Positions 2,296-13,059 of a stretch of 13,059 bases of DNA are shown one piece after another. This stretch comes from Cyanobacteria bacterium P01_D01_bin.156 (GTDB lineage Bacteria; Cyanobacteriota; Cyanobacteriia; Phormidesmidales; Phormidesmidaceae). The DNA lies in the NCBI GenBank assembly GCA_039024555.1, contig JBCCQQ010000103.1, positions 1-13,059 of the forward strand. The letters are read 5' to 3'. Made by a program: the position numbers and the translations under genes. Below the pieces are notes generated by a model, which searched no databases, was not told the origin of the DNA, and saw only the letters and a program-made list of their open reading frames with translations. Each line of letters starts with the position of its first letter. Position 1 is the stretch's first letter.

Positions 2296-3336
2296 TTAGA
2301 CCGCAGTCAGCTGCTTCTCCAGGTCGCTGCTATATTCACCTTTGCTAGCTAAACTATTAAACTTAGCCCGCTGCAACAGACGCTGTTTAGCTTCTGCAAT
2401 GTTACCATCCTTCCCTGCCCAATGATCTAAAGCAGGCTGTTGAATTGCCCGAGCATAGGAGAACGTTACCGGCCAGGGGCACTGACTACCAAAATGCTTA
2501 TTCATCGCATTCAGATGGGCAGAGGACTGCTCCTTAGTTTGACCACCCGAGAGAAATGCAATTCCAGCCACGGTCGCAGGCACATTTTTCAGCAGGCAAC
2601 GGATGGTTGCTTCCGCTACAGCGTCTACGCTAACGCTTTCACCAGACGCTTTACCAGGAACTACCATACTAGGCTTTAAGATCATCTGATCATAAGCCAC
2701 ACCCTGGGTGTAAAGCTGTGCAAAAACAGCATCTAGAGTCTCATCAGTCACCTGATAGCAGCGCTCTAAGGAGTGACTGCCATCAATCAGCACCTCTGGC
2801 TCTACAATTGGTACCAAACCGCCTTCCTGACATAGAGCAGCATAGCGCGCCAACCCATGGGCATTGGCTTCAATACAGGCTCGACTGGGAATGCCATCAC
2901 CAATGGTAATAACTGCACGCCATTTGGCGAATCGAGCCCCCATTTTGTAGTACTCCGCAATCCGATCCCTAAGACCGTCTAAACCCTCGGTCACCTTCTC
3001 TCCAGGATGCCCAGCAAAATCTTTAGCTCCAGTATCTACCTTGATGCCAGGAATCATACCTGCATCGGCAATGACTTTCAAAAAAGGCACACCATCACGG
3101 GTGGTTTGACGGATGGTTTCATCGTAGAGAATGGGGCCGCTTACATAGTCAGATAGCCCAGGTGTAGATAAGATCAATTCTCGATAAGTTTGCCGAGAAA
3201 CTTCTGTTGTTGGAATGCCTAAAGCGTCAAATCGCTTATTGCAGGTTCCATTGCTTTCATCCATTGCCAAAATCCCTTTGCCCTCTTGGACCATGGATTT
3301 GGCCGTAGATTGAAGTTCTTTGGTATAGGTGCCCAT
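2296..3336 (-). CDS. fda: Class I (Schiff-base, metal-independent) fructose-1,6-bisphosphate aldolase, 346 aa
   Basis: GKGILAMDES, GIKVD, FAKWR, PIVEPE, Schiff-base Lys in ILKPSMV, FLSGGQ, FSYARA. Start set at ATG 3336 (MGTYTKEL) with AGGAAGG RBS at 3348-3342. Confidence 0.95.
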   Translation of the reverse strand: MGTYTKELQSTAKSMVQEGKGILAMDESNGTCNKRFDALGIPTTEVSRQTYRELILSTPGLSDYVSGPILYDETIRQTTRDGVPFLKVIADAGMIPGIKVDTGAKDFAGHPGEKVTEGLDGLRDRIAEYYKMGARFAKWRAVITIGDGIPSRACIEANAHGLARYAALCQEGGLVPIVEPEVLIDGSHSLERCYQVTDETLDAVFAQLYTQGVAYDQMILKPSMVVPGKASGESVSVDAVAEATIRCLLKNVPATVAGIAFLSGGQTKEQSSAHLNAMNKHFGSQCPWPVTFSYARAIQQPALDHWAGKDGNIAEAKQRLLQRAKFNSLASKGEYSSDLEKQLTAV

Positions 3337-3383
3337 AATCGCCTTCCTAACAAAATTTTGAGTAAAGTGACAGTAACAAGCAG

Positions 3384-3402
3384 ATTGAAAATGATTTTCT
3401 AT
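3384..3402. promoter_or_regulatory. Fur-box-like palindrome ATTGAAAAT-G-ATTTTCTAT upstream of the aldolase gene
   Basis: 9-1-9 inverted repeat, 8/9 symmetric; fits ATTGAnAATnATTnTCAAT. Confidence 0.65.
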
Positions 3403-3424
3403 TAAGCTTGCACGGCCTCGTCTT

Positions 3425-3443
3425 ATTGACATATAATCTCAAT
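3425..3443. promoter_or_regulatory. Fur-box-like palindrome ATTGACATA-T-AATCTCAAT in the aldolase/hypothetical divergent promoter
   Basis: 9-1-9 inverted repeat, 7/9 symmetric, extending to TTATTGA...TCAATAA. Confidence 0.6.
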
Positions 3444-3496: not shown

Positions 3497-3934
3497 ATGA
3501 ATGCAAGCACTCAAGCTGTATCAATTGGTATTATGGCAAAAATTGCCAGTATTCCGGTGTTATTCCGGGCGGAGTTTTCGTCAGCAATTGTAGACTTTAG
3601 TCCCTGGACCATGGATGAACAGACGCAGAAACATTGTGATCCTAACTCGATGGATTTTGCTTTTTCGTTTTCCAAGTTGCATCCCCAATTAAACTGTGGC
3701 TGCGTTTTATTGCAGGTTTGTTTTGTAAACCAGCTTTCAGATAAAAACAATCGCTTCCACGGTATTAAAGCCTCTGGCCATGGTCATCGGGCTCAGTATT
3801 GGAATTTCTCTACCATAACTGACTGGCGATTTGCCGGAGACTCGTTACCATCTGATGTGTGTCAGCAACAGCTCAAACATATCTTTCATCAAATCCATAT
3901 GCTGTTTGGTTATCCTGCTTCACTAACCCATTAA
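3497..3934 (+). CDS. Conserved cyanobacterial hypothetical protein (145 aa)
   Basis: MNAS.QA...KIAS...LF..EF.....D..PW..D..T....DP.S.D..F...W..ST...W...G pattern resembles a cyanobacterial hypothetical family as I recall it; function unknown. Confidence 0.75.
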   Translation: MNASTQAVSIGIMAKIASIPVLFRAEFSSAIVDFSPWTMDEQTQKHCDPNSMDFAFSFSKLHPQLNCGCVLLQVCFVNQLSDKNNRFHGIKASGHGHRAQYWNFSTITDWRFAGDSLPSDVCQQQLKHIFHQIHMLFGYPASLTH

Positions 3935-4063
3935 CTCAAACGGCCCGCTAGGTAAATCAGGTCCTAGATGAAATCTGTGTAACATCTGTTAGATGAACTA
4001 GGATATTAGCGAGAGCTCTGATTTTGTGAAAAACGCAGGTTCTAAATATAAGCAAGAATATAT

Positions 4064-4089
4064 GTCCTCTTCGACTACGCTCAGAGGAC
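4064..4089. repeat. REP-like hairpin GTCCTCT-TCGACTACGCTC-AGAGGAC
   Basis: Perfect 7-bp stem around a TCGACTACGCTC core that resembles a dispersed bacterial short repeat; lies between convergent genes. Confidence 0.55.
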
Positions 4090-4118
4090 GTTAGTTGATT
4101 TCGTTAGAGAGACTACTG

Positions 4119-4262
4119 CTAAAATCGCCAAGATTTATAATGCGCTTCAAATTCTCCGTAGATTAGCATAGCCCAGGAAAATGTGACTGTAATAGGTGAT
4201 AGTACCAACAGCAACCGTAAGTTTATTAAATCAAATGAACCCAAATTAAAGAGATTATGCAT
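4119..4262 (-). CDS. Small PsbY-like membrane protein (47 aa), not in the ORF track
   Basis: Manual translation: MHNLFNLGSFDLINLRLLLVLSPITVTFSWAMLIYGEFEAHYKSWRF*. It shows the PsbY spacing R-x6-P-x6-W-x5-G; AGGA 11 nt upstream; starts 35 nt after the psbF-fusion stop. Confidence 0.65.
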   Translation of the reverse strand: MHNLFNLGSFDLINLRLLLVLSPITVTFSWAMLIYGEFEAHYKSWRF

Positions 4263-4297
4263 AGTGCTATGCGTCCTAAAGTTTCTGCTAAATATGT

Positions 4298-4591
4298 TTA
4301 ATCCCTCAAGAATCCCTGAATCTCATTTAGAGTTGGCTTACCAAAGTTAATTACATTCCAAATAAGAGAAATCACTAGTGGCAGTAGCACTAGTGATAGT
4401 CGTGAGTCAATTCCAAAAACTTCAAGCTGGATAGGTAATTGAGGTTCACGTCTAATAAATTGCATAGCACCAATGGCTCCCAAAAACCAAACAGTAGGTA
4501 CGCCTAAGGCATGAATTGATAACCATCGAATAGTGTAAATGGGATATTCTATTGGCTGATTGGGGTCTCTGTTGGGAATATTAGCTGTCAT
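4298..4591 (-). CDS. psbF: Cytochrome b559 beta subunit (aa 1-48) fused to a C-terminal PsbY-like domain (aa 61-97)
   Basis: [33 protein letters not shown] is PsbF with the heme His; [35 protein letters not shown] is PsbY-like; AGGAG RBS at 4607-4603. Confidence 0.9.
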
Positions 4592-4615
4592 GATCTTAAA
4601 ATCTCCTTGAATATC

Positions 4616-4897
4616 TTATTGATTTAGCGATGGTGCTGTAAAAGGAACTCGGTCTTGGAAGTATTCATTAAGTTGTTGTTTTGCCTGAACACGATTTTCC
4701 ACAATCGGAGCATTGATTTGCCCTGCTCCATAATATTCATCAGGTCGAGGTGTACCAAATGCGTCGTAGGCCAGTCCCGTACTCACAAATAGCCATCCTG
4801 ATATAAACACAGCTGGAAAGTTAATCAGATGTAGCACCCAAAACTGTGGATCGGTAATAATGTCCGATAAAGGACGTTCTCCAGTAGTACCTGCCAT
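4616..4897 (-). CDS. psbE: Cytochrome b559 alpha subunit, divergent paralogue (93 aa)
   Basis: MAGTTGERP...W..H...[23 protein letters not shown]; heme His23 retained; AGGAG RBS at 4910-4906. Confidence 0.95.
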
Positions 4898-5077
4898 ACC
4901 ATCGGCTCCTATTAAAGAGTAGTTATTGATGCTTGATGGCTAAACTCAGAAATAAAATTCTGGCGTTGCTGAGCTTTGAGAGAACATAAGCCGCGAAAAA
5001 AACAGCAACAACTGCGGTAGCCAAACGCATCTCTTGAATTAGTAACGGTATTTTCTCAGTAACATTAGCTTGATTTA

Positions 5078-5096
5078 AATGATATTTATTGTCAAT
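5078..5096. promoter_or_regulatory. Fur-box-like palindrome AATGATATT-T-ATTGTCAAT upstream of psbE
   Basis: 9-1-9 inverted repeat, 6/9 symmetric; contains a minus-strand TTGACA (5095-5090) that could be the -35 element of the psbE operon. Confidence 0.6.
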
Positions 5097-5469
5097 AAGA
5101 TCTCACGTAAAAAAATGTTAACTCTCCAAGATTTGAATATCTTTTGTATGGCTTATCTAGCGATGCTTCTGCTGGAGAGTGTTGCTGATATTACAATGGC
5201 AATACTCATACATGTAACCCGCATGACAATCGTTAAGACTCTGTTTTCTTATCAATATCTATTCTCATTAGTGTGCTACTATAAAGCCCATGCTTTCAAC
5301 GTGACTTGCTCAGTTGGCCTAGGGATGTGGACTGCTTCAGGTTTTCTTGCTATGTGAAGTTTTCGATTTGCAGATGACTTTAACTGTGGCAGGTTTTGGC
5401 ATGCTAAGAGATTCCGTCTCTCTTATGGCGATTGGAATAAGACATGAAACTCTTTCTCCAGGTATTCCT

Positions 5470-6102
5470 ATGAGACTTTTAATACGGATTAGTCTAATCT
5501 TGCTAATGGGCTTTTTATGTCTGTATACAGCCCCTATGGCGCAGGCATCCACAGCAAAAGCGTTTGAAGGATCTATTCATAAGCCACAGCAGAAGAGTTC
5601 TCTCGAAGAAACTCTTGAGCAAGACTGTATCTCTATGACTGGGGCACAGGGGCTAAAAAAATGTAAGGATTTGATTGTACAAGACCAAAACAATTCAGAA
5701 GCCTGGAATCAGCTTGGTCGTATTTTTTATGATTTAGAGAATTATCAGGAAGCCTATTTATCATTCATGCTTGCCACGCAATTTCGGACAGATTATGCGA
5801 TTGCTTGGGCCAATATCTGTGCTGCGCTCAGTCAGCTGCAGTATTATAAAGATGCTTTAGATGCCTGTGATAAATCTCTAAGTGTTAACTTTTCATCAAA
5901 AGGGCCTGTTGATGAAAAGGTTTTGGCCTTGAATAATAAGACAGTAGCTCTTTATTTTTTAGGTCGTTATCAAGAGGCTCTTAAAATTTCTGATCAAGCA
6001 GTTGCGCTTAAGCCAGATGATGCTCAGGCCAACGTAAATCGTACTGTTGCACTCCATGCATTAGCTCATAAAATAGCTCCTCAAAGCGATGATTTCACAT
6101 GA
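5470..6102 (+). CDS. Exported tetratricopeptide-repeat (TPR) protein, about 210 aa
   Basis: TPR patterns (AWNQLGRIFYDLENYQEAY, AWANICAALSQLQYYKDAL, ALNNKTVALYFLGRYQEAL...KPDD); signal peptide MRLLIRISLILLMGFLCLYTAPMAQA from ATG 5470. The start is uncertain because the ORF is open from 5347. Confidence 0.8.
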   Translation: MRLLIRISLILLMGFLCLYTAPMAQASTAKAFEGSIHKPQQKSSLEETLEQDCISMTGAQGLKKCKDLIVQDQNNSEAWNQLGRIFYDLENYQEAYLSFMLATQFRTDYAIAWANICAALSQLQYYKDALDACDKSLSVNFSSKGPVDEKVLALNNKTVALYFLGRYQEALKISDQAVALKPDDAQANVNRTVALHALAHKIAPQSDDFT

Positions 6103-6218: not shown

Positions 6219-6836
6219 GTGATGATTATTTTCGCTTTAAAGCGGTTAGCGTTTTTCGCCATGGCCATTTGCCTTAGTTTTCTTCTATGGTATGAACCTG
6301 CATTTGCAATTACCTACTCATTTCAATCACCTGGAACACCGGGGCAAGAGGGTGTTTTGATGGGTTCTGTTACGTATGATTTGGAGATTGCCCGTAAAGC
6401 GTTGGAAAATATGACCTCCAATAGAGGGACATCCGGAGTACTTAACCTCGAAGAACTAGGAGAGGGTAGTGAGTTTTCCTTCGAGTATGTTTCTCCTCAT
6501 TCAGGAGTAAGGCATTCGGAACAAACTATTTGCGATCGCAATATTTATGATCTCAACAATGGTCTGGAAGGTAATGATGTCATTGGTGGAAAAGAAGGTC
6601 CATTCTTCGATTTTAATGGTTATTCTGATTTAGTGTCAGTTGACTTTAAATCCTGTGTGGGTAACAAAAATGAGTTTGGCGTTTCTTCCATCTCAGAGCG
6701 AGACCCTCAAGTTGCCTATAGTGAACTTGAATCTCAGTTCAATCAACTTTTGTTAGTTGAATCTGATTATAGCGGCATTAAACCAGGACGATTTAAGAAA
6801 AAGCTACCTATCAAATTTAACCTAGAAGAGCCATAG
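6219..6836 (+). CDS. Exported hypothetical protein (about 205 aa)
   Basis: Signal peptide ...KRLAFFAMAICLSFLLWYEPAFA|ITYSF, acidic mature part with two Cys; GTG 6219 or ATG 6222 with AGGT upstream. Confidence 0.7.
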   Translation: MMIIFALKRLAFFAMAICLSFLLWYEPAFAITYSFQSPGTPGQEGVLMGSVTYDLEIARKALENMTSNRGTSGVLNLEELGEGSEFSFEYVSPHSGVRHSEQTICDRNIYDLNNGLEGNDVIGGKEGPFFDFNGYSDLVSVDFKSCVGNKNEFGVSSISERDPQVAYSELESQFNQLLLVESDYSGIKPGRFKKKLPIKFNLEEP

Positions 6837-6959: not shown

Positions 6960-7259
6960 CTAAAACAATTCATCCTCCACTGAGGTCTGAATTTTACAAT
7001 CTGACGTGGGATAGGCCACGCAGATCAGAGCATAGCCTTTAGATAACTGGTCATCATCCAGAAACGACTGATCAGATTGATCAACAGTCCCCGATAGAAC
7101 CTTTGCTACACAAACACAGCAAGCACCTGCTCGACAAGAGTACGGCAGGTCCATTCCCGCTTCATTAGCCGCATCTAATATATATTTATCCTTTGGCACT
7201 TCAATGGTCTGCTCAATATTGGAGGGTGGCTCTACCAGCGTGACTTGAAAGGTTCTCAT
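6960..7259 (-). CDS. petF: Plant-type [2Fe-2S] ferredoxin (PetF-like paralogue)
   Basis: [49 protein letters not shown], acidic C-terminus EDELF. Confidence 0.92.
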
Positions 7260-7302: not shown

Positions 7303-7321
7303 ATTGAGAATCAATGTCAAA
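7303..7321. promoter_or_regulatory. Fur-box-like palindrome ATTGAGAAT-C-AATGTCAAA upstream of the ferredoxin gene
   Basis: 9-1-9 inverted repeat with an ATTGAGAAT half-site, 44-62 nt upstream of the ferredoxin ATG. Confidence 0.65.
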
Positions 7322-7598: not shown

Positions 7599-8477
7599 AT
7601 GCTAGCTATTCGGAATCTCAATAAGACTTATGCTAATGGGATTCAAGCACTCAAAGATATCTCTTTAGAGATCGATAAGGGCATCTTTGGGCTGCTGGGT
7701 CCTAACGGTGCAGGGAAATCTTCTCTTATGCGGACATTGGCCACTCTCCAAGATGCCGATAGCGGTTCCATCAGCTTGAATGGTATTGATATCCTCAAGG
7801 AGCACCAATTGGCTCGGCGTCAGTTGGGTTATTTGCCTCAAGATTTTGGCATATATCCTAACGTCTCTGCGGCAGAGCTTTTGAATCAATTGGCAGTCTT
7901 CAAGGGGTTTACCCACAGCCGACAGCGTCGAGATATGGTGGCCCATCAGCTGCATTTGGTTAATCTCTACGATCAGCGCCATCAGAAGCTGGAGACTTTT
8001 TCTGGCTGCATGCGTCAGCGCTTTGGCATTGCCCAGGCCTTATTAGGGGAACCTAAGCTGGTGATCGTTGATGAACCAACTGCAGGATTAGATCCTACGG
8101 AGCGGATCCGATTTCAGAACCTGCTGGCGGAGATCGCCCAAGATCGGGTGCTGTTGCTATCTACTCACATCGTTGAAGATGTGGCTGAGCTATGTACTCA
8201 GATGGCAATTTTGCAACAAGGCCAGATTGTGCGGCAGGGTAGTCCTTTTGAGTTAATGGAGTCTTTGCAAGGTCAAATTTGGTCCAAGTGGGTGAATACT
8301 CCCGCCGATATTGATCCTAATTGGCGATTGATCATCTCACGAATGATACGGGGGCAGCGCTCTGTCCGAATATGGAGTGAAACGTATCTAGGGAAAGAAT
8401 TCGAGATTGTTGAACCTGAGCTGAGTGATGTGTATTTTACCGCTTTGATGAAGACGCCTGTTGCGCTGCGGTCTTAG
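7599..8477 (+). CDS. ABC-2-type transporter ATP-binding protein (signature altered to FSGCM)
   Basis: Walker A GPNGAGKS, Q-loop GYLPQ, Walker B VIVDEPTAGLDP, H-loop STH. Confidence 0.92.
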   Translation: MLAIRNLNKTYANGIQALKDISLEIDKGIFGLLGPNGAGKSSLMRTLATLQDADSGSISLNGIDILKEHQLARRQLGYLPQDFGIYPNVSAAELLNQLAVFKGFTHSRQRRDMVAHQLHLVNLYDQRHQKLETFSGCMRQRFGIAQALLGEPKLVIVDEPTAGLDPTERIRFQNLLAEIAQDRVLLLSTHIVEDVAELCTQMAILQQGQIVRQGSPFELMESLQGQIWSKWVNTPADIDPNWRLIISRMIRGQRSVRIWSETYLGKEFEIVEPELSDVYFTALMKTPVALRS

Positions 8478-12202: not shown

Positions 12203-12832
12203 TCACCTTAGCTCCTCAAAACACTGCTGGATCATCCCTCGGTTATGCACTCCCATTTCCCAAGCCTGCTTTCCCTCCTCCGAGGTCAACCACTGCAATG
12301 CCGCCAGTTCAGCCGATGATAAGATTTTAGCCTGTCCCCCTCGGGATATCCGATGCATACCCAAAGCATAACCAAAACCTACACCCCCAAACATCAATAG
12401 CGCTGCTACACCCAACGCAGGCAAGCCTGCCCGCATCCACAATTGCTTATCATTAACTCGGTCAATCTGCTTGCAGTGCTGAATGACTGCTTTCTCCACC
12501 GCCAGTCCTAGCTCCGTACCCAATTCCTTGGACAGGTCGAAATGCTTCTGAGCCAACATGCCTCGCAACTGCTCTTTCAAGTCTTGAGATAGTGCACCAA
12601 AGCTTTTGACCTCACTCTTTACCTGGTCCTGAAATACCGTTGGAACCTTGGCCAACTGGGTCAGGTTTTCCAGGTTGACTGCATAGATCGAGCTAATCAC
12701 TGCTGCAATCGGGTCTGTTACCCGTACCCCATAGTCTGCCAGGATACGGGTAACGGCCTGTTTGGCCTCAGTTCCATATTGCTTGAGGACAGAATCCAAG
12801 GAATTGGGAGCATGGTGAGTGGATATCGTCAT
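12203..12832 (-). CDS. Hypothetical membrane-anchored coiled-coil protein, resembling cyanobacterial plasmid mobilisation-associated (DUF6753-like) proteins
   Basis: G...DP N-terminal motif, helical middle, one TM (ALGVAALLMFGGVGFGYALG), then WLTSEEGKQA; family assignment from memory. Confidence 0.6.
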   Translation of the reverse strand: MTISTHHAPNSLDSVLKQYGTEAKQAVTRILADYGVRVTDPIAAVISSIYAVNLENLTQLAKVPTVFQDQVKSEVKSFGALSQDLKEQLRGMLAQKHFDLSKELGTELGLAVEKAVIQHCKQIDRVNDKQLWMRAGLPALGVAALLMFGGVGFGYALGMHRISRGGQAKILSSAELAALQWLTSEEGKQAWEMGVHNRGMIQQCFEELR

Positions 12833-13059
12833 CGGCTTACCTCATGAGGTGGTGGACTATGAGAACGTTGCGCCAGTAGCATTTCTTGTTGTGCCTGGGC
12901 ACCCAGAGTTTCAAATCTTTGAGCGTCATTAGGCGTAATGGTGACGTGACTGAGTGTCCCCTGCTCCACCTGGAGCACGGATTTACCGTCATGGCTGGTT
13001 GCCGAAAAACTAAGCCCATCCGGAGAGCCGCGCAGATGATACTGATCGGTCTCCATGGC
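12829..13059 (-). CDS. C-terminal end of a larger protein starting outside the window (possibly a plasmid relaxase/mobilisation protein)
   Basis: The frame is open to the window edge; ATGA overlap with the downstream gene; Gln-rich low-complexity tail. Confidence 0.5.
   Translation of the reverse strand, partial: AMETDQYHLRGSPDGLSFSATSHDGKSVLQVEQGTLSHVTITPNDAQRFETLGAQAQQEMLLAQRSHSPPPHEVSR

Follow-up and report, generated by a model that had tools for sequence, protein, structure and literature searches.

The window analysed here is an entire 13-kb contig (C103; 13,059 nucleotides) of a 6.6-Mb genome that is 99% complete. Three small genes lie in tandem on its minus strand, and a purine-rich motif resembling a ribosome-binding site precedes the start of each (3/3). 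The first, psbE2 (4616-4897), encodes a divergent cytochrome b559 alpha subunit of 93 amino acids with a C-terminus approximately 10 residues longer. Its product passes the TIGR01332 cut-off (115.7 bits; cut-off 93.95) and shares 59% identity with the housekeeping PsbE across 79 residues; its alpha helix reaches 20.7 bits against PF00283, below the cut-off of 30. The second gene (4298-4591) is an in-frame psbF2::psbY fusion of 97 amino acids, composed of a beta helix, a linker of approximately 12-16 residues and a PsbY helix. The third (4119-4262) encodes a PsbY-like single-helix protein of 47 amino acids, which represents a separate small family and matches PF06298 with 17.4 bits over 18 positions, below the cut-off of 24.

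In the fusion, the PsbF part comprises residues 10-48 (TIGR01333, 77.7 bits; cut-off 61.15) and is 67% identical to the housekeeping PsbF, and the PsbY part comprises residues 61-95, matching PF06298 at 35/35 positions (27.6 bits; cut-off 24). The two parts lie in one open frame with zero stop codons between them. Aligned with the PsbY of the same genome by hhalign, the PsbY part gives a probability of 80% and an E value of 1.4e-5; against the NCBIfam PsbY equivalog it scores 22.6 bits, below the cut-off of 48. With 97 residues and two hydrophobic helices, the protein departs from the usual beta subunit, which has one helix and approximately 44 residues. The predicted model contains helices at 18-46 and 63-96 (pLDDT 70, pTM 0.38) and leaves helix packing unfixed. 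Since the end of PsbF and the start of PsbY both lie on the lumen side of the membrane, a helical hairpin fits the predicted fusion. Read-through or an assembly error behind the fusion is ruled out, as the frame is open across 66 aligned proteins.

None of the 17 larger ORFs scanned on the 13,059-nt contig encodes PsbL, PsbJ, RubA or Ycf48, and psbL/psbJ patterns were found within 3 kb at 0/35 related loci, some of them cut by contig ends. The housekeeping rubA-ycf48-psbEFLJ locus is complete at C30:32856-35380 (translations read, and tblastn), and the ordinary psbY of this genome lies on contig C101. The earlier note had described psbE, psbF::psbY and a psbY-like ORF in tandem with such ribosome-binding motifs, free of psbL/psbJ and rubA-ycf48 and additional to a housekeeping copy, and in these respects it is borne out; one refuting condition it named, a genome devoid of any other psbE/psbF, does not apply here. 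Its description of the cassette as stand-alone does not hold, because two genes on the opposite strand belong to the unit. One encodes a TPR protein (5470-6102, plus strand; Pfam TPR) with a signal-peptide-like N-terminus, read by eye; the other encodes a beta-rich orphan protein (6222-6836, plus strand), also with a signal-peptide-like N-terminus. In addition, a doubtful leader ORF (4923-5030, minus strand; 35 codons, hydrophobic, no Pfam match) has a comparable frame in just two genomes, those of the closest relatives, at differing lengths, and is absent from 15 other leaders compared. A 92-codon ORF at 5079-5357 was rejected as a cassette gene, since its conservation stops at the closest relatives.

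The orphan protein is the tightest companion of the fusion. Its gene occurs at 21/35 loci, at 15 of these 21 downstream of the fusion and co-oriented, and TPR orthologues occur at 17/35 loci by pattern, or 18 counting L050; all such counts are made over loci many of which are cut by contig ends. The two genes are divergent in this contig, and at most other loci they lie on the same strand after the fusion. Among 151 family genomes, 15 encode the orphan, 14 of which carry the fusion; the fusion carrier G110 is absent from the list of orphan-bearing genomes, and G010 has the orphan, TPR and haem oxygenase genes with no fusion found. A 7-kb contig free of psbE2 and the fusion has consecutive genes for DoxX, haem oxygenase, TPR and the orphan (L085:1367-4428). 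In a 400-genome sample of the phylum, the orphan gave a single weak partial match. The orphan has zero matches in Pfam and NCBIfam and forms a small closed family: a profile search of 1.84 billion representatives returned four full-length clusters, the rest being fragments. Within the family, His98, Cys104 and Cys145 are invariant. Its predicted model is confident and beta-rich (pLDDT 82). Foldseek found no match at E 0.001, an atlas look-up led to unnamed clusters only (0.90-0.91), and the best of 48,161 chains compared reached Z 3.6 with an rmsd of 4.2-5.0 over approximately 95-105 residues. Those matches that point to haem-binding barrels lack significance (E 0.03 or worse, Z <=3.6). As judged from the predicted model, these comparisons show neither a new nor a known fold.

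The fusion recurs well beyond the window. In a 90% cluster set, 67/67 candidates match it, two of them being the contig's own, and 66 were aligned. It is present in 15/151 family genomes, and a second psbF match accompanies it in 14 of the 15, all but an 89% complete assembly; it was not found in a sample of 400 genomes from elsewhere in the phylum (E 1e-27) and has zero matches in plasmid and phage collections. A GTDB scan yielded 35 fusion loci, including Acaryochloris marina MBIC11017, other Acaryochloris, and Richelia, Trichodesmium, Oscillatoria, Leptolyngbya and Pelatocladus records. At 33/35 loci psbE2 lies directly ahead of the fusion, and one other contig starts within the fusion. Several single records differ. 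A Pelatocladus record (L051:966-2108) lacks psbE2 in the vicinity, and the gene ahead of its fusion and PsbY-like gene resembles a superoxide dismutase gene (by eye); in Leptolyngbya sp. Heron Island J (L052:10001-10249), the fusion is truncated within its PsbY part, at approximately 71 residues; and L053, labelled Candidatus Gracilibacteria, has the full cassette and is likely a mislabelled or mixed bin. Many family genomes (e.g. G040, G071, G078, G135 and G141) also have extra unfused psbF-like matches beyond the housekeeping copy.

In the PsbE tree, built on 92 columns with a narrow housekeeping set and with groups labelled by an Asn-x-Pro motif, a 100/99 branch separates 32 PsbE2 from 15 housekeeping sequences. 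The two A. marina copies fall on opposite sides of it, and the group of the contig joins a Richelia sequence (96/96). This topology fits one origin followed by lateral spread or by many losses. The A. marina pair AM1_1130/AM1_1129 (UniProt B0C2V2) has the same PsbE branch, the same fusion, the same boxes and the companions AM1_1133 and a TPR gene; unlike in the contig's cassette, no PsbY-like ORF was seen there. The A. marina psbE2 has been described as unique to that species, in the portion of the literature available. By the sequence matches presented here, it occurs in several cyanobacterial families, and in a genome devoid of far-red genes.

The PsbY-like gene is found at 22/35 loci and in 20/151 family genomes. 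Eight of these 20 genomes lack the fusion, and in three of the eight contexts the gene is paired with the TPR gene behind Fur-type sites. Because the PsbY-like gene is thus more widespread, and partly accompanied by TPR without the fusion, the unit consists of two sub-modules, PsbE2 with the fusion and orphan, and the PsbY-like peptide with TPR. At L120-L127, the PsbY-like gene lies apart from the cytochrome pair, amid AraC regulators, siderophore-uptake-like genes and Fur-type sites, and a PsbY-like frame on contig C84 (L074:13931-14041) has no ATG or GTG start and also lies behind a Fur-type site. The PsbY-like gene is accordingly a separate small family of predicted iron-stress membrane peptides.

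A de novo motif search of 31 psbE2 upstream regions, the set left after three near-duplicates were dropped, returned an imperfect palindrome beginning ATTGAC. It scored 620, against 326-342 in five shuffled sets (60 starts for the shuffles, 250 for the real set). In the window, this predicted Fur-type box occupies 5078-5096. It covers the -35 element and spacer of the predicted psbE2 promoter (5067-5095, minus strand), in which TTGACA (5095-5090) is followed after 17 nt by CAAGCT (5072-5067), and it may also serve the divergent TPR gene. TTGACA or TTGATA lies within the box at 17 loci, and the hexamer 17 nt on reads nAnnCT in 17/17; a sigma-70 consensus scan did not pick up this conserved promoter. 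A second, weaker Fur-type site at 5251-5269, ahead of the TPR gene, scores 12.1 bits, a value that chance also yields.

We scanned the genome with a matrix of 24 sites that excluded the contig's own site, those of its two closest relatives and four poor sites. The box at 5078-5096 scored 21.4 bits and ranked second in the 6.6-Mb genome. Four genomic sites exceeded 21 bits, compared with 0 in each of five shuffles, and 17 exceeded 17 bits, compared with 1-5. Genes with a high-scoring site ahead of them include both copies of class I aldolase, a FecCD permease, IsiA-like antenna genes, flavodoxin, TonB/ExbB, fur, ferrochelatase and DoxX. Further sites lie in front of cobW-type genes or a tRNA-synthetase-like ORF, or have no long ORF after them. 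The matrix may thus also catch zinc-regulator boxes, given the cobW-type genes downstream. When Acaryochloris was held out as well, its five psbE2 upstream regions scored 12.9-20.2 bits, and sites also appeared ahead of its orphan and TPR genes. Overall, 31/34 psbE2 upstream regions score at least 12.7 bits, 19 of them being training sites, and three (L041, L064 and L066) score below 4 bits; the upstream regions of 17 housekeeping psbE genes score -3.9 to 2.9. In A. marina, a site of 15.3 bits also lies inside the psbE2 coding region (L089:5893-5911), and psbD3 has no Fur-type box within 9 kb around it. The promoters of a Synechocystis Fur-regulon study, as given in the available part of its supplement, contain look-alike palindromes. 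Named from the gene set, these look-alikes and the Fur consensus, the box is likely of Fur type. The earlier note had placed a Fur-like box over the candidate -35, and this box proves to be conserved and common to the iron-starvation genes of the genome.

At related loci, the neighbours of the cassette include haem oxygenase (directly after the fusion at 7/35 loci), AraC regulators, siderophore-type binding proteins, NiSOD and IsiA/Pcb antenna genes, the last adjoining the cassette in A. marina and L036, and fur itself is a neighbour in five Acaryochloris loci. Within the window, two further features belong to the host island and lie outside the cassette: a Fur-type box at 3425-3443 (21.3 bits), between a class I fructose-bisphosphate aldolase gene (minus strand) and a 145-aa ORF, and a plant-type ferredoxin gene (6960-7259, minus strand) with a Fur-type box at 7303-7321. 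As the former box overlaps the first ATG of the aldolase frame (2296-3443), the start is probably at 3336, as in the paralogue on contig C48. The 145-aa protein (3497-3934, plus strand) belongs to no Pfam family and has three paralogues (on C48, C84 and C19), and three of the four copies adjoin Fur-type sites. A paralogous block on C48 shows 72-79% DNA identity and the same flanks and lacks the 3-kb cassette. The C48 island (L129:7190-19626) adjoins genes for a type IV (conjugative) coupling protein and a 2470-aa helicase-primase, and a matching DUF6753 gene ends the contig of the window (12203-13059). On the basis of this cassette-free block, the conjugative neighbours and the shared DUF6753 gene, the cassette is cargo of a probably mobile iron-stress island. 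The ABC ATPase at 7599-8477 has the signature motif FSGCM, and its C48 paralogue has FSGGM. Contig C84 (L074:1-14200) holds an iron-stress cluster with a FecCD permease, a linker-like protein, three IsiA-like genes (one fused to PsaL), flavodoxin and two ferredoxins.

Published expression values are available for A. marina. At standard, low and high oxygen, AM1_1130 (psbE2) is reported at 47, 21 and 33 and the housekeeping psbE at 34,459, 11,070 and 17,313, and AM1_1129 (the fusion) stays at 20 across these conditions, in agreement with the supplement row (PMC5295598, available parts). Low-oxygen induction is ruled out by the fall of AM1_1130 from 47 to 21. The contrast of 47 with 34,459 in standard culture supports the earlier proposal that the cassette is conditionally expressed. 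Public RNA assemblies provide further indications from 8 of 18 listed runs, which come without stated growth conditions and whose contig depth cannot rank expression. In two runs of one study, psbE2 and the fusion share one contig whose limits coincide with the ends of the genes, separate contigs cover the orphan and TPR genes, and the 3800-4720 flank of the covered locus has no cover. In six other runs the cassette is patchy or lies inside DNA-like contigs; X12, X13, X14 and X16 contain scattered low-depth pieces, and in X1 and X5 DNA background is likely, since long contigs run over silent flanks. The gene-bounded RNA contigs are a weak sign of conditional transcription.

Given its low expression in standard culture, one could ask whether the cassette is a silent, decaying duplicate on a mobile island. 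Its patchy occurrence (15/151), near-zero standard-culture expression and mobile neighbourhood, and the truncated L052 copy, would fit such a fate. Against it, purifying selection acts on all five cassette genes, with dN/dS of 0.03-0.23 overall (psbE2 and the fusion 0.03-0.07, the PsbY-like ORF 0.18-0.23), the fusion is intact in 66 aligned proteins, the promoter is conserved and the RNA contigs are gene-bounded. This explanation is already largely refuted, and we regard it as extremely improbable.

A second question raised by expression is whether light quality is the governing signal. Two papers citing Kiss et al. 2012 state, in the portions available, that the A. marina psbE2 is far-red induced together with psbD3. 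This second-hand report would suit an isoform for far-red or shaded habitats in which iron control is secondary. However, the present 99% complete assembly has no far-red reaction-centre genes, only ordinary D1 and collapsed D2 pieces, and membership in a FaRLiP cluster, sought as far-red D1/D2 paralogues and chlorophyll f synthase, was not found. Moreover, the conserved control element is the palindrome of the iron regulon, and far-red light could act indirectly through a raised iron demand. We therefore consider a primarily light-quality role improbable.

To judge whether the fusion enters photosystem II (PSII), the A. marina structure entries deserve attention. In databases, AM1_1129 is psbF according to one source and PsbY according to another, and it is chain F of PDB 7YMI/7YMM. 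In 7YMI, chain F is traced only at beta residues 17-46, and chain E is the housekeeping protein. The ordinary A. marina psbF lies behind psbE1 (L069:1468-1602) and the fusion at L089:5483-5782; the gene table of PMC5295598, as available, omits the ordinary psbF. The 7YMI model is described, in the accessible account, as built by mutating T. vulcanus chains to database sequences. As an ordinary psbF exists in the genome but carries no annotation, chain F of 7YMI/7YMM is probably misassigned through a database artefact. We rejected 7YMI chain F as proof of PSII entry, in view of the ordinary psbF behind psbE1, the mutated T. vulcanus model and the tracing of residues 17-46 only. The available text on the A. 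marina PSII structure, from standard culture, reports PsbY as absent (PMC10889353), and in the available part of the mass spectrometry tables of A. marina PSII, the housekeeping PsbE is present and the accession of the fusion is absent.

The haem pocket was compared across 32 distinct PsbE2, 15 housekeeping PsbE, 35 fused beta parts and six single-helix PsbF sequences. The axial ligands are retained throughout, alpha His23 in 32/32 PsbE2 and the beta His in 35/35 distinct fused sequences. Additionally, alpha Arg8 is invariant in PsbE2 and the beta Arg is kept in the 35 fused beta parts. In contrast, alpha Arg18, present in 15/15 housekeeping PsbE, is lost in 32/32 PsbE2, so that only two of the three propionate-contacting arginines (alpha 8, alpha 18 and beta 19) are kept. 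PsbE2 further shows Tyr19Phe, Thr26Asn and Ala33Ser (32/32 each) and Asp in place of Ser16 (31/32), and two Phe of the six single-helix PsbF are Tyr and Trp in the fused beta parts. According to the available text of PMC4709441, the haem propionates are contacted by alpha Arg8, alpha Arg18 and beta Arg19, R18S turns the high-potential form into an intermediate one of lower potential, and Y19F and T26P strains grow. From the kept His ligands, the pocket substitutions and the behaviour of these mutants, we infer that the haem would be retained but retuned or loosened.

These substitutions also invite a more radical interpretation, in which the Fur-controlled pair enters PSII and spares iron by holding haem weakly, transiently or not at all, or by holding another His-ligated pigment, and in which the iron of the normal cytochrome would be salvaged by the orphan and haem oxygenase. 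The fixed changes do cluster at the propionate-binding face and beside the His, haem oxygenase directly follows the fusion at 7/35 loci, the orphan has an invariant His, and the module stands among iron-replacement genes such as flavodoxin and class I aldolase. PSII of T. elongatus is reported to assemble with haem-free cytochrome b559, whereas Synechocystis needs proper haem ligation and assembles haem-free PSII poorly (PMC4709441, available text). An invariant axial His pair and two invariant propionate Arg of three would, however, be needless in a haem-free version, and the matches of the orphan to haem-binding barrels (E 0.03 or worse, Z <=3.6) fall short of significance. We judge this interpretation unlikely. 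The same holds for its fullest form, of which we are doubtful: an iron-starvation PSII in which cytochrome b559 surrenders the iron of its haem, its propionate clamp taken apart, a lumenal His-bearing orphan of unmatched fold handling the cofactor and a haem oxygenase freeing the iron.

Alternatively, the products might work outside PSII in iron stress, as a free three- or four-helix thylakoid haem protein that acts as a haem store, a quinol oxidase or an IsiA/Pcb partner. The lack of psbL/psbJ at all loci (0/35), the dedicated secreted companions, the IsiA/Pcb genes adjoining in A. marina and L036 and the missing direct sign in PSII are compatible with this. On the other hand, the N-terminal GERP motif and the whole lumenal AYD-FGTP segment of PsbE2 are as conserved as in the normal protein. 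In PsbE, both face D2. This conservation argues for a contact of PsbE2 with D2. Furthermore, PsbY lies against cytochrome b559 (PMC4823308, available text), a contact of assembled PSII that the fusion reproduces. We give a role outside PSII only a small chance.

Known systems resemble the module in part. Similar to canonical cytochrome b559, its subunits pass the NCBIfam cut-offs and keep both His ligands, alpha Arg8 and the beta Arg; it differs in its separate locus, in the absence of psbL/J (0/35), in the beta subunit fused to PsbY, in the PsbE2 residues (Asp16, no Arg18, Phe19, Asn26, Ser33) and in a Fur-type promoter that is absent from 17 housekeeping copies. PsbF2 of Synechococcus PCC 7335 is likewise a second psbF outside psbEFLJ, but it is a single-helix protein of 44 aa with 75% identity to PsbF1, its gene shares an operon with psbO1/nblA/psbV, and its locus as described has neither a second psbE nor a PsbY fusion (PMC8689208, available text). 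The isiAB-type Fur regulon shares the palindrome class and, in this genome, the same kinds of co-regulated genes; its known members, in the literature available, replace antenna or soluble carriers and include no pair of PSII core subunits. As for PsbY, the fused helix keeps Asp-x-Arg, Pro and Trp, and there are two PsbY-type helices per locus. The plant PsbY-1/PsbY-2 polyprotein is reported to be cleaved into two PsbY peptides (PMC4823308, available text), whereas in the cassette PsbF and PsbY form one chain in which no cleavage signal is evident by eye, and a gene of its own, divergent in sequence, encodes the second helix. In open full-text literature, with subscription papers and preprint supplements beyond reach, we found neither a PsbF-PsbY fusion nor iron control of a second psbE described, and no iron experiment on these genes.

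On balance, we lean towards an accessory cytochrome b559 module that is likely Fur-repressed and likely provides a replacement cytochrome b559 corner for PSII under iron shortage. Iron-loaded Fur would very probably block the promoter, which opens upon iron loss. PsbE2 and PsbF2-PsbY would then probably pair and join D2 instead of the normal pair, using the housekeeping PsbL, PsbJ, RubA and Ycf48. The two His would still hold the haem, and the loss of Arg18, Tyr19Phe, Thr26Asn and the new Asp16 would lower its potential or loosen it; the altered haem may retune a protective side pathway of PSII for iron-starved cells. PsbY, reported as easily lost from PSII (PMC10889353, available text) and normally loosely bound, would be kept permanently beside the haem by the linker. 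As a weak suggestion, the exported proteins might act in the lumen, where they would help with assembly or with handling of the cofactor; the orphan would serve PsbE2/PsbF2-PsbY, and TPR the PsbY-like peptide. This preferred reading of a low-iron replacement is favoured by a motif common to iron genes, the iron- and haem-related neighbours, the kept ligands and the contact of PsbY with cytochrome b559. It is weakened by the reported far-red induction, psbD3 without a box, the cobW-type sites, the three low-scoring upstream regions, the A. marina PSII structure and mass spectrometry without signs of the fusion, L051 without psbE2 and the truncated L052. The earlier note's overall reading is partly supported: the conditional second copy with a conserved Fur-type box stands, an exchange confined to the cytochrome b559/PsbY corner of PSII is a candidate reading, and the note was incomplete in omitting the secreted TPR and orphan genes and the altered haem pocket.

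Collectively, psbE2 was already known from A. marina, and the cassette is, from its sequences, a real, conserved and selected five-gene cytochrome b559 variant. Most likely, Fur represses the five-gene module and the cell uses it when iron is short. What cytochrome b559 does in PSII is still an open question (PMC4709441, available text), and the protein has so far been treated as one invariant housekeeping part. Here, a naturally selected second form is fixed at the very pocket residues that have been mutated in the laboratory (Arg18, Tyr19 and Thr26), together with an iron-type operator. Since the module is present in the culturable A. marina MBIC11017, the question becomes testable with a wild-type protein. 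The module also adds two uncharacterised, predicted exported proteins and flags the probable misassignment in PDB 7YMI/7YMM. If the doubtful iron-yielding version were true, its cytochrome b559 would be the first case, in a core subunit, of a swap like that of flavodoxin for ferredoxin, and the module would be a natural test of the purpose of cytochrome b559. The replacement of the cytochrome b559 corner under low iron, the reading we prefer, would carry iron-stress remodelling beyond antennas and soluble carriers into the PSII core.
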